From Candidatus Saccharimonadota bacterium (GTDB lineage: Bacteria; Patescibacteriota; Saccharimonadia; Saccharimonadales; UBA4665), in assembly GCA_002952755.1 (NCBI GenBank), contig CP025011.1, forward strand, positions 150,001-182,000: a DNA stretch of 32,000 bases, written 5' to 3'. Both the position numbers and the translations under genes were made by a program. A model generated the notes under the pieces. It saw only the letters and a program-made list of their open reading frames with translations, was not told the origin of the DNA and made no database searches. Positions 23,991 to 26,403 of this stretch are shown in pieces; the first letter of the stretch is position 1; every line of letters begins with the position of its first letter.

Positions 23991-25418
23991 ATGTTCAAAA
24001 AGCTTGGCGTGGGCCTACTCACCCTTATGCTATTAGTACTACCGCTCGCTAACAAAGCAGCAGCAGATACAACGCCCACTAATCTCATTGCCAACCCCTC
24101 TATGGAGACGTCAGCTGCAGATGGCACGCCTGCCCACTGGCATGATGGTAGCTGGGGCACCAACACCCATACTGCTACCTATGAAAACACCGGTCACACA
24201 GGTAGTCGTAGCCTCAAAGTAGCTATTACTAGCTATACCAATGGCGATGCCAAGTGGTACTTCGATGAGGTGTCGGTGACGCCGGGCCAAAATTATGCCT
24301 ATAGCAACTGGTACCAGTCGAGTGTTGACAGTGAGATAGATGCGCAGGTGACGGCTGCCGACGGCACCATCACGTACGATTTTGTAACTACCGCTTTAGC
24401 GAGTCCTGGAGTTTGGAAGCAGGCTGCTGCGCAGTTTGTAGCGCCGGCCAACGCCAAAAGGGTCACCTTCTTTCAAGTTCTTGCTAAGGTGGGTTCAGTG
24501 CAAATCGATGACGCTAGCTTGAGTCTCTACACGCCGGCGCAGTTCAACCGAGGTATAGTCAGCCTGACCTTTGATGACGGCTGGCTTAATCAGTACACCG
24601 CCGGCTTGTCGCTACTCGACAAGCACAACGCCAAGGCTACTTTCTATATTATCAGTAGTACCTTTTTAGATAACGCCAACTACCCCGACTACATGAATCA
24701 GGCCGAAATCCAGGCGCTGCAAAACGATGGTCACGAGATTGGCTCGCATACCGTTACCCATCCTCATTTGCCAACGCTGACAGCTACTCAGCTGGACCAG
24801 GAGTTGGGCAATTCTAAGACGAGTCTGCAAAGCGCTTTTGGTCTAAACGCCGCGATCAACTTTGCCACGCCGTACGGGGAATACAATGCGGCGGTGATTA
24901 CCGGTATCCAAAAGTATTACCGCTCGCATCGCTCCACCGACGACGGCTTTAACAGCAAAGATAATTTTGATATCTATAACATCAAAGTACAGAACGTTGA
25001 CGATGCGACCACTCCGGCGCAAGTAGCCGCTTGGGTTGCTCAGGCGCAGCGCGATAAAACTTGGCTGGTGCTGGTGTATCACCTGGTGCAGAACGATCCG
25101 AATCCGGCCCCTACCGAAGATTACTCGGTAAGCCCCGCTAACCTCGAAGCCGAATTAGCTAACATGCAGCAGAGCGGCATCGCTGTCGAAACCGTCAACC
25201 AGGCTTTAGACGAAATCAAAGCCCAGATGAGCCCAGTACCACCTACAATTCCTGGCGACATTAATGGCGATAGCCATGTCGATATCTACGACCTTAGTAT
25301 CCTTTCTACCAACTGGCAGACACTTTCCGGTGCCACCAAAGCACAAGGCGATTTAAACGGCGATGGGAGCGTAGATATCTACGACCTATCGATCTTATCA
25401 ACGAATTGGGGTAAATAA
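23991..25418 (+). CDS. Secreted CBM4/9-like - polysaccharide deacetylase (NodB) - dockerin protein
   Basis: The signal peptide is MFKKLGVGLLTLMLLVLPLANKAAA. The CBM-like start is NLIANPSMETSAADGTPAHW. The NodB motifs are LTFDDGW and GSHTVTHPHL. The C-terminus carries two 21-aa dockerin calcium-loop repeats. A GAAGGAG RBS precedes the ATG. Confidence 0.85.
   Translation: MFKKLGVGLLTLMLLVLPLANKAAADTTPTNLIANPSMETSAADGTPAHWHDGSWGTNTHTATYENTGHTGSRSLKVAITSYTNGDAKWYFDEVSVTPGQNYAYSNWYQSSVDSEIDAQVTAADGTITYDFVTTALASPGVWKQAAAQFVAPANAKRVTFFQVLAKVGSVQIDDASLSLYTPAQFNRGIVSLTFDDGWLNQYTAGLSLLDKHNAKATFYIISSTFLDNANYPDYMNQAEIQALQNDGHEIGSHTVTHPHLPTLTATQLDQELGNSKTSLQSAFGLNAAINFATPYGEYNAAVITGIQKYYRSHRSTDDGFNSKDNFDIYNIKVQNVDDATTPAQVAAWVAQAQRDKTWLVLVYHLVQNDPNPAPTEDYSVSPANLEAELANMQQSGIAVETVNQALDEIKAQMSPVPPTIPGDINGDSHVDIYDLSILSTNWQTLSGATKAQGDLNGDGSVDIYDLSILSTNWGK
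25254..25409 (+). repeat. Tandem dockerin repeat pair (coding)
   Basis: GDINGDSHVDIYDLSILSTNW (25254-25316) and GDLNGDGSVDIYDLSILSTNW (25347-25409) both follow the DxNxDxxxDxxD pattern. The DNA copies differ mostly at synonymous positions. Confidence 0.85.
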
Positions 25419-25420
25419 GT

Positions 25421-26347
25421 ATGAACTTTCTATACAAATTGAGCAGTACGCTGGTGACCGGCCTGGTGCTGATGGCAACCGCCACTGCATCCGCTAGTCC
25501 AACCGCTAGCTTCGCCATCTCCGGCAGTGGCTCGTACACCGTGGGCAATAGTTTTACGGTAACGGTATCCGAAAACAGCGGCAGTCAGGAAGTAAATGCT
25601 GTTAAGGCACAACTGCAATACGATGCCTCGGCATTGCAAGTTACTTCGCTCTCAACTGGCGACTTTACGACTTGCCCGGCTGCACCAAGCGCTTCTGGTA
25701 ATACTATTAGCTTCCAGTGTGCTGCGCTAGGCACTAAACTAACCGGCGTGCATATCGTTGGTACCATCACCTTTAAGGCGCTGGCGGCTCAGACGACATC
25801 GGTCAGCACCTTATCCAGTTCGGCAATTGTTGATGCTAACACCGCGAACCAGAACGACTGGGACGGTGTGGCCGCAGCAGGGTCGTACACGCTCACGGCC
25901 CCTGTTTCTTCTCAGCCAAACCCTACACCCACCCCAGCCCCTACCCAAGGTGGTAGCACTGCGCCAAGCGCAACGTCTAAGACTTCAACTGGCTCTACCG
26001 GCAAGGCCACAGCTACGACAAACGGTACCGCGGTCGCCGGCGCCACAACCGCGCAACCTACAACCCCAACTACACCTGCCCCGGGCAGCAAGGCAGCGAG
26101 CAACAACCCCACAATCAACGCAAAAGACACAGATAAAAAGACGAGCAAGAGCGGTACTGCTATCGCCTGGATCCTACTAGCTGTTGCCACTATAGCCCTC
26201 TTGGTACGCACTCTTAGGAAGAAGCGACAGCCTGTCAAGACGCCTGTAGTGCCAGCAGTTACTAAGAAAGCAGCTTCTGCTAAGGTTAAGACCGTTGCTA
26301 ACAAGCCAGCGGCAAGCAAAACAAAGGCTAAGGCCAAAAAAGCCTAG
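25421..26347 (+). CDS. Cohesin-domain protein with Pro/Thr-rich linker, C-terminal TM anchor and Lys-rich tail
   Basis: A signal peptide is followed by a cohesin-like segment, GNSFTVTVSENSGSQEVNAVKAQLQYDASALQVTSLSTGDF...GTITFKA. Next comes the linker PNPTPTPAPTQ...TTPTTPAPG and then the TM helix IAWILLAVATIALLV followed by RTLRKKRQ. It starts 2 nt after the dockerin gene. Confidence 0.75.
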   Translation: MNFLYKLSSTLVTGLVLMATATASASPTASFAISGSGSYTVGNSFTVTVSENSGSQEVNAVKAQLQYDASALQVTSLSTGDFTTCPAAPSASGNTISFQCAALGTKLTGVHIVGTITFKALAAQTTSVSTLSSSAIVDANTANQNDWDGVAAAGSYTLTAPVSSQPNPTPTPAPTQGGSTAPSATSKTSTGSTGKATATTNGTAVAGATTAQPTTPTTPAPGSKAASNNPTINAKDTDKKTSKSGTAIAWILLAVATIALLVRTLRKKRQPVKTPVVPAVTKKAASAKVKTVANKPAASKTKAKAKKA

Positions 26348-26367
26348 AGCTTATACTAAACAATAAA

Positions 26368-26403
26368 ACAAATCCCCGCTGTTACTAGCGGGGATTTGTT
26401 TTA
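26368..26403 (+). terminator. Strong intrinsic terminator
   Basis: The 13-bp perfect stem ACAAATCCCCGCT/AGCGGGGATTTGT has the loop GTTACT and is followed by TTTTA. Confidence 0.85.

Follow-up and report, generated by a model that had tools for sequence, protein, structure and literature searches.

The question raised by this locus is what a Saccharibacterium does with one dockerin and one cohesin that are encoded side by side. The locus lies in a window of 32,000 nucleotides (nt), positions 150001-182000 of contig CP025011.1 of Ca. Teamsevenus rhizospherense; coordinates below are those of the window unless otherwise given, and the two genes and their parts lie on the + strand. Gene 1 (23991..25418; gene _185 of CP025011.1) encodes a predicted secreted protein of 475 amino acids (aa) with a carbohydrate-binding module (CBM) of the CBM4_9 type, a NodB deacetylase domain of family CE4 and a dockerin. 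Gene 2 (25421..26347; gene _186 of CP025011.1) encodes a cohesin membrane anchor of 308 aa. The gene 1 stop codon and the gene 2 ATG are 2 nt apart, and the coordinates and spacing of both open reading frames (ORFs) agree with an earlier prediction made from the sequence of this window (the original prediction). The analysis indicates that the pair is likely a translationally coupled two-gene operon that would display one enzyme on the cell surface, where the enzyme would act on an acetylated glycan.

Domain analysis showed the features of the gene 1 product. A predicted signal peptide (approximately aa 1-25; 23991..24065), with an MFKK start, a hydrophobic core and an AAA-D junction, was placed by a hydrophobic window and by the low predicted local distance difference test score (pLDDT) of aa 1-25. 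The CBM4_9 module (aa 31-160; 24081..24470) matched CBM_4_9 (PF02018) with 32.4 bits against a Pfam cut-off of 25.9, and it was modelled as a beta-sandwich whose PDB matches in Foldseek were CBM16, CBM22 and CBM4-2 (template-modelling score, TM-score, ~0.65-0.72). The NodB domain of family CE4 (aa 186-412; 24546..25226) was supported by Pfam, invariant residues and structural matches: Polysacc_deac_1 (PF01522) matched aa 186-307 with 96.3 bits (cut-off 23.1), the NodB motifs TFDDG and HTVTH were present, and the metal/catalytic residues D195, D196, H253, H257 and H364 showed no variation across 39 family members. The structural model of the protein (mean pLDDT 88) contained the CBM sandwich, the NodB barrel and two dockerin helices, and its domain-wise structural matches were CE4 enzymes and CBM4, CBM16 and CBM22 modules. 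The signal peptide, CBM4/9 and NodB (TFDDG, HTVTH) architecture that had been predicted for gene 1 is upheld, the CBM and NodB domains by Pfam scores above the curated cut-offs. As a separate observation, the top Foldseek PDB match of the CBM and NodB body taken together (aa 30-412) was no CE4 enzyme but a viral protein, the Haloferax tailed virus 1 capsid turret protein (8qpg_TA; TM-score ~0.5 over 417 aligned columns, E = 1e-18), and this decoration protein of an archaeal virus may have the same two-domain arrangement.

The C-terminus of the gene 1 product is a type-I-like dockerin with two 21-aa calcium-loop/helix repeats (aa 422-442 and 453-473; 25254..25409), identified by Pfam, motif and model. 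Dockerin_1 (PF00404) matched aa 421-470 with 38.8 bits against a cut-off of 22.9. The repeats, GDINGDSHVDIYDLSILSTNW (aa 422-442) and GDLNGDGSVDIYDLSILSTNW (aa 453-473), are separated by a spacer of 10 aa, and both carry D/N at loop positions 1, 3, 5, 9 and 12; the predicted calcium ligands are D423, N425, D427, D431 and D434 in the first repeat and D454, N456, D458, D462 and D465 in the second. The modelled dockerin helices span aa 432-443 and 463-472. A textbook dockerin of two 21-aa repeats 10 aa apart had been predicted, and the Pfam score above the cut-off and the D/N residues at every ligand position confirm it. A six-frame scan of the whole 32 kb found the dockerin loop pattern nowhere else in the window. 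The two repeats are identical at 18 of 21 aa and at 44 of 63 nt of DNA, which indicates selection at the protein level and argues against gene conversion in the recent past. Within the window protein the repeats do not differ at positions 10-11, the putative recognition pair, or along the helix behind them. Each of nine orthologues likewise has matching residues at positions 10-11 of its two repeats, but these residues vary from one orthologue to the next (window, IY; most orthologues, AL; L002, ES; L089, IK). Selection thus keeps the repeats symmetric, which is what a dual binding mode would call for.

The gene 2 product begins with a predicted signal peptide (approximately aa 1-25; 25421..25495; ending ASA-SP), placed from the sequence and from low N-terminal pLDDT, and this is followed by the cohesin domain (aa 26-160; 25496..25900). 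Pfam Cohesin (PF00963) matched aa 37-143 with 34.6 bits against a cut-off of 24.1. In the AlphaFold2 model, which was built on an alignment of 11 sequences, aa 28-160 were all-beta with pLDDT >90, and the modelled domain has the nine-stranded beta-sandwich (jelly-roll) fold of a cohesin. The 19 best PDB matches of the cohesin model in Foldseek were all cohesins (target-normalised TM-score 0.65-0.80) and spanned cellulosomal type I and III, Archaeoglobus non-cellulosomal and Clostridium perfringens toxin-complex cohesins, while the family sequence profile reached the Acetivibrio ScaB cohesins at E = 0.003. The nearest matches were of type I, type II, type III and non-cellulosomal cohesins alike, with no single type favoured. 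The original prediction had staked the cohesin fold on profile searches, and these (Pfam and the family profile, together with Foldseek) supported it.

Behind the cohesin lie a Thr/Ala/Pro/Ser-rich linker (aa 161-245; 25901..26155), disordered by composition and in the model, a transmembrane helix (approximately aa 246-266; 26156..26218; Kyte-Doolittle maximum 2.27; model helix 247-267) and a Lys/Ala-rich tail (aa 267-308; 26219..26344) with 13 Lys. The positive-inside rule would place this tail in the cytoplasm. Pfam, hydropathy and the AlphaFold2 model therefore agree with the arrangement foreseen for gene 2, namely signal peptide, cohesin, Pro/Thr linker, transmembrane helix and Lys-rich tail. 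A sortase or PEP-CTERM sorting signal was ruled out, since there is no motif before the transmembrane helix and the tail of ~42 aa is too long; no conserved motif upstream of the helix was seen in the orthologue alignment, LPxT[GAS] was present in 0 of 120 related anchors that end in a transmembrane helix, and Pfam gave no match to an S-layer homology (SLH) domain in gene 2. The start of gene 2 differs between databases, one call (P0001) being 297 aa and beginning 11 codons downstream; the ATG at 25421 is the start used by Starr et al., and with it the signal peptide has a proper n-region and the coupled junction is the conserved one. The tail is Lys/Ala/Pro-rich and of histone-H1-like low complexity. 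Most related anchors likewise carry a long basic tail; its median length past the transmembrane helix is 64 residues, far beyond what the positive-inside rule needs.

Comparison with related loci showed that the two genes occur together. The gene 1 core (CBM and NodB) belongs to a large family found mainly in metagenome-assembled genomes (MAGs) of Saccharibacteria, with a second clade in the actinomycete Dactylosporangium. A large proportion of the family ORFs examined (89 of 104) stop no more than 25 residues past NodB, and a dockerin was present in 11 ORFs, some of them duplicate loci. All dockerin-bearing members (L001, L002, L004, L006, L007 and L017) are directly followed by an anchor gene like gene 2, and the anchors in L001, L002, L004, L006 and L007 have the same order of signal peptide, cohesin, linker, transmembrane helix and basic tail. 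Searching from gene 2 alone led to the same arrangement, as the two best cohesin homologues (L088 and L089) have a CBM-NodB-dockerin gene directly upstream. In 80 loci of the CBM-NodB family from GTDB species genomes, an adjacent cohesin was found for 3 of 3 members with a dockerin and for 0 of 77 without one; the chance of this overlap is 1 in C(80,3), or ~1e-5, ignoring shared ancestry. The immediate neighbours of the cassettes in L001, L002, L004, L006 and L007 differ between genomes; the window and L002 nonetheless have SHMT, MurB and HTH_31 upstream in common at a larger scale.

Ten distinct deacetylase-anchor pairs were obtained in all, and the intergenic gap was -1 to +2 nt in 9 of 9 deacetylase pairs. 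The junction AAYTGGRGYAAATAA(N0-2)ATG is conserved in nine pairs, and the same type of junction occurs with other cargos. At the end of the dockerin, Asn-Trp-Ser/Gly codons spell TGGAG or TGGGG ~8-10 nt 5' of the next ATG, so that the dockerin C-terminus would double as the ribosome-binding site of the anchor gene. In the window this internal Shine-Dalgarno-like sequence is TGGGGT, in the last dockerin codons (N-W-G; 25407..25412), and TGGAG stands there in most orthologues. The two genes appear to be set up for translational coupling.

The dockerins and cohesins also co-vary in type. The cohesins sort into classes at one predicted strand, and these classes match dockerin positions 10-11. D9-type AL dockerins are accompanied by ISRY cohesins (5 of 5), while the sole N9-type AL dockerin (L007) is paired with an IGCFT cohesin; the partners of [I/V][Y/F] dockerins are xCAxxG cohesins (window, L093, L091 and L092), and those of the ES and IK dockerins are an LNRG and an IGRG cohesin, respectively. 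The cargo of L093 has a permuted domain order (NodB-CBM-FN3-dockerin), yet it carries the same IY dockerin as the window, and its cohesin is the most similar to that of the window (66% identity), which indicates that the pair travels as a matched unit. This pattern suggests a specific, selected interaction between dockerin and cohesin, although the common ancestry of the pairs means that it falls short of statistical proof. Two conserved Cys (TTCPAAPSASG...FQCAALG, approximately aa 84-100, 25670-25720) were seen in the window cohesin and in the partners of [I/V][Y/F] dockerins and are missing in some AL-type partners (L001 and L017) and in the ES-type partner. A disulfide between the two, close to the predicted binding face, is possible.

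In one relative, P0024 (L011:4947-6719; 67% identical), the CBM-NodB enzyme runs straight on into a low-complexity linker, a transmembrane helix and a basic tail; a dockerin is lacking, and no cohesin gene lies alongside. It is best regarded as an architectural analogue only, not as proof of a gene split. The MAG that holds P0024 is labelled Nevskiaceae (Gammaproteobacteria), and this label looks like a binning error because the nearest relatives of P0024 come from Saccharibacteria. Two further observations concern the same families. Dactylosporangium (L052, L055, L058 and L066) carries a multi-CBM4_9-NodB family with up to ~58% identity to the window protein, which suggests horizontal gene exchange of Saccharibacteria with an actinobacterial lineage; cultivated Saccharibacteria have their hosts in that phylum. 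A Saccharibacteria MAG (L029:10922-11887) encodes a protein of signal peptide and cohesin only (192 aa), followed by a second cohesin ORF running off the locus, and there is no dockerin gene next to these cohesins within the locus.

From these features we infer how the pair would work as regards dockerin-cohesin binding, topology, spanning of the wall, substrate and physiological role. Both products would be exported through Sec signal peptides, and the gene 2 product would stay in the membrane in type-I topology, so that its cohesin would face outwards and its Lys-rich tail would lie in the cytoplasm. The disordered linker of ~85 residues could span a Gram-positive-type wall and present a single cohesin at the surface, into which the two-repeat calcium-binding dockerin of gene 1 would plug; with two equivalent repeats, either face of the dockerin could bind (dual binding mode). 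The cell would thereby retain a polysaccharide-deacetylating enzyme on its own surface. The enzyme would most likely deacetylate the acetylated glycan bound by its CBM, a hemicellulose or chitin-like polymer of plant or fungal necromass, and deacetylation would be part of carbohydrate scavenging by a CAZyme-rich soil Saccharibacterium. The one-enzyme, one-anchor surface display put forward in the original prediction is supported by the co-occurrence of dockerin and cohesin, the coupling set-up, the matched types and the P0024 fusion.

The locus itself is already known, and its detection here is a correct re-discovery of a published annotation. Ca. Teamsevenus rhizospherense is a rhizosphere Saccharibacterium with a closed 1.45-Mb genome and a guanine-cytosine (GC) content of 49.95% (Starr et al. 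2018, Microbiome 6:122, PMC6031116). Genes _185 (173991..175418) and _186 (175421..176347) in Table S2 of that paper correspond to the window coordinates +150,000; the annotation of _185 is a dockerin protein containing CE4 and CBM22, and that of _186 is "cellulosome Type II cohesin" (PMC6031116). The flanking entries in Table S2, which match the window at exactly the same offset, are gene _187 (176421..177089), an alpha/beta hydrolase, and an upstream gene at 173347..173844 (PMC6031116). The part of the gene table that was available, which appears to span the whole genome, lists just a single dockerin and a single cohesin, and a dockerin-less paralogue of 849 aa with CE4, CBM4 and an immunoglobulin (Ig) fold lies at 146092..148638 of the genome, just outside the window (PMC6031116). 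In one sentence the pair is termed a "two-subunit cellulosome", with a cellulose-degrading reading, and a carbohydrate-degrading/scavenging lifestyle is predicted for the organism (PMC6031116). The account of Starr et al. leaves out the transmembrane anchor, says nothing of how the pair is conserved and coupled or of its matched specificities, and does not identify the cargo as an esterase as opposed to a cellulase (PMC6031116). The present analysis adds the wider cassette family and the evidence that the pair is conserved, coupled and specific. Beyond the genome paper, no description of the system was found in the cohesin/dockerin literature on Saccharibacteria, Patescibacteria and the candidate phyla radiation.

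The term "cellulosome" overstates a pair with one cohesin, one esterase and no glycoside hydrolase (GH). A cellulosome in the strict sense has a multi-cohesin scaffoldin and several dockerin-bearing GHs; here Pfam gave no GH domain in either protein, and the window holds one dockerin. It is highly improbable that the pair is a true miniature cellulosome breaking cellulose down to cellobiose, which is the reading given in the genome paper. Such a system with one cohesin and one dockerin-bearing cellulase is known in Cellulosilyticum lentocellum, but CE4/NodB is the sole catalytic domain of the window pair, its single cohesin comes with no CBM3 scaffoldin, and the genome paper's own table lists the cargo as CE4 and CBM22. 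The dockerin and the window cohesin might also not be partners at all, their adjacency reflecting co-regulation while the dockerin binds another cohesin or acts as a calcium-stabilised adhesin and the anchor displays other proteins. Non-cellulosomal dockerins have been proposed elsewhere as adhesins, membrane-anchored single-cohesin proteins with unknown partners have been reported in Bacillota, and cohesin genes without an adjacent dockerin occur in Saccharibacteria (L029). This separation of the two proteins is nonetheless improbable in view of the strict co-occurrence and the -1 to +2 nt coupling in every pair examined, and of dockerin and cohesin types that co-vary even across cargo architectures; likewise, the single dockerin and single cohesin named in the available part of the published gene table stand against it, and no other dockerin-like double loop was present in 929 kb of related sequence.

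A further alternative keeps the same tether but gives it a different purpose. Peptidoglycan could be N-deacetylated, either in the cell's own wall, for lysozyme resistance, or in the host wall at epibiont contact, which would be remodelled or weakened; we regard this role, which the original prediction had raised as a possibility, as unlikely. Deacetylases of peptidoglycan N-acetylglucosamine and N-acetylmuramic acid are among the nearest solved CE4 relatives and among the NCBIfam matches, but they match no better than acetylxylan esterases, and all equivalogs score far below their cut-offs. Cultivated Saccharibacteria live as epibionts of Actinobacteria, and a CBM-NodB family common to Dactylosporangium (~58% identity) is compatible with gene exchange with the host lineage; however, most members of that family are multi-CBM secreted proteins, often in tandem arrays, typical of polysaccharide-degrading CAZymes. 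The attached module is of the CBM4/9 type, typical of xylan/glucan binders, and not a LysM, SH3 or peptidoglycan-binding domain, and GH10 and GH26 genes neighbour related loci. An acetylated plant or fungal hemicellulose or a chitin-like glycan is therefore weakly favoured over peptidoglycan, because of the xylan/glucan-type CBM fold, the GH10, GH26 and GH1 genes near the cassette in relatives (L093, L004 and L001) and the predicted scavenging lifestyle.

Several points weigh against surface display of a glycan deacetylase as proposed here. No glycoside hydrolase adjoins the pair in the window itself. The signal peptides and the topology were assigned from hydropathy and inspection by eye only, and the co-variation of dockerins and cohesins covers ~13 pairs with shared ancestry. 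NodB motif 3 is R-x-P-Y, in which the Arg supports the catalytic base; motif 3 of gene 1 is FATPYG, with an invariant A292 at the usual place of the Arg, and an invariant R314 might stand in for it. The NCBIfam equivalogs for peptidoglycan, chitin, acetylxylan, poly-N-acetylglucosamine (PNAG) and holdfast deacetylases were all far under cut-off (best HfsH, 86.7 against 400). Acetylxylan esterases, chitin deacetylases and peptidoglycan deacetylases were equidistant from the CE4 domain (E ~1e-11, TM-score ~0.7), and because the solved CE4 types are equally distant no specific substrate class can be assigned to it. Homology between the tail of P0024 and that of gene 2, which would have pointed to a gene split, was rejected, as hhalign aligned only 20 low-complexity columns with 46% probability.

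Comparison with characterised systems places the proposed surface display among known uses of cohesins and dockerins. Among characterised systems, the nearest analogue is ClcC/ClcD of Cellulosilyticum lentocellum, likewise a two-gene operon, which holds the only cohesin and the only dockerin of its genome and whose products heterodimerise (PMC13487519). It differs from the window pair in that the cohesin protein has CBM3 and X2, has no cell anchor and targets the substrate, cellulose, and in that the cargo is a GH5 cellulase without a CBM, whereas the window cargo is a CE4 enzyme with its own CBM (PMC13487519). The ClcC/ClcD genes are ~40 bp apart with independent ribosome-binding sites and the dockerin repeats are asymmetric, while the window genes are predicted to be coupled and the window repeats are symmetric (PMC13487519). 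The non-SLH scaffoldins of Bacillota (H. luporum, C. cibarium and Lachnoclostridium sp. MSJ-17) also have one cohesin together with a transmembrane helix at the C-terminus (PMC11557425). They have no clear partners, whereas the candidate partner of the window anchor, which is from a Saccharibacterium, is encoded directly upstream and co-varies with it (PMC11557425). The CE4 of Clostridium thermocellum Xyn11A (PDB 2c71), which was among the sequence and structure matches of the gene 1 CE4, is likewise an esterase brought to a cohesin by a type-I dockerin; it is, however, one module of a multi-domain xylanase on a nine-cohesin scaffoldin with dozens of enzymes, while the window CE4 would be the sole cargo of a single-cohesin membrane anchor. 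The Archaeoglobus fulgidus cohesin 2xdh and the C. perfringens GH84/GH33 toxin-complex structures 2vo8, 2jh2 and 2ozn, all among the best structural and sequence matches, are examples of cohesin-dockerin use beyond cellulose, as in the window. These systems join soluble enzymes or sit within one protein, and none is an operon of a membrane anchor and a single esterase.

The window pair was also compared with more distant relatives. HMMER searches of 1.84 billion representatives, clustered at 50% identity, found 808 relatives of the window cohesin domain at E <= 1e-3 and 137 at E <= 1e-10. A large proportion of the best 148 cohesin relatives (120) had a transmembrane helix towards the C-terminus, in most cases with a basic tail behind it. 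For 5 of the 5 anchors examined from outside the CBM-first deacetylase clade, a gene ending in a dockerin lay upstream at -1 to +3 nt. The same two-gene rule thus extends to other cargos, mainly Ig-like proteins: the cargo of L091 has an uncharacterised N-terminal region and a Big_7-like Ig domain, those of L092 and the P0154 contig are Big_7/CARDB proteins, and that of L093 is the deacetylase with permuted domain order. In L090 (611-4364) three overlapping genes encode Big_7-dockerin, cohesin-Big_7/CARDB-dockerin and cohesin-transmembrane proteins in succession. The first (gene A) has a signal peptide, a beta domain, Big_7 and a dockerin, and the third (gene C, P0005) has a cohesin, a Gly/Ser linker, a transmembrane helix and a tail; no enzyme domain was detected in this three-gene operon, which looks like a tiered mini-scaffold. 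A further observation is that P0141 (1658 aa, on a 3.2-Mb contig), which is related to this cohesin subfamily, has 19 matched cohesin stretches in one protein and would be a large multi-cohesin scaffoldin of a larger-genome organism.

It is possible, and is proposed here tentatively, that such cassettes form a widespread and undescribed display platform of Saccharibacteria and probably other uncultivated small-genome bacteria, in which a coupled cargo-dockerin gene and cohesin-linker-transmembrane gene have matched specificities. The cargos would then be either Ig-like proteins resembling adhesins or CE4 deacetylases, the latter with two domain orders, and some cassettes would be three-tier stacks.

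The remaining features of the window concern expression of the pair and its surroundings. A sigma-70-like promoter candidate (TTGACA-17-TATGAT; 23925..23953) agrees with the consensus at 11 of 12 positions; the number of promoter-like matches across the region is not above the shuffled expectation, so this single site proves little. A Shine-Dalgarno sequence, GAAGGAG (23977..23983), was read 7 nt 5' of the gene 1 ATG. Downstream of the pair, an intrinsic-terminator hairpin with flanking A and T runs (26361..26406; no strand assigned) has a stem of 21 paired bases and a folding energy of -32.3 kcal/mol (z = -10.9 against shuffles), and it is possibly bidirectional, given the A and T runs on its two sides. 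The terminator that had been predicted is therefore present, but its stem is 21 bp and not 13 bp, the shorter figure corresponding to the G+C-rich core with its A/T extension.

Upstream of the pair, Pfam gave no match for two sizeable ORFs at 22136-23350 and 18410-20101 (- strand), of 404 aa and 563 aa. A tRNA-Arg (CCG) at 8789-8865 is followed by a stretch of lower GC content (43-47% at 10-14 kb against ~51% elsewhere), and this stretch (8789-14000) carries RibD_C, PadR, a PIN toxin and a weak ribbon-helix-helix match below the Pfam cut-off. In L002 the SHMT-MurB-HTH_31 block shared with the window is only ~2 kb from the cassette. The window may hold ~16 kb of inserted material, on the grounds of this short distance in L002 and the tRNA-flanked stretch of lower GC content.

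With respect to the organism, the published label of a cellulose-degrading "cellulosome" should become a single membrane-anchored cohesin displaying a CE4 esterase, and this relabelling changes the predicted role of the system in the rhizosphere Saccharibacterium. If the wider platform holds true, bacteria with very small genomes could use the cassettes for modular decoration of the surface that they present to substrate or host. The cassettes would also give a concrete means of testing how the cell surface is built and varied in ultra-small bacteria of reduced genome, and protein engineers could draw on them as a natural set of orthogonal cohesin-dockerin pairs.

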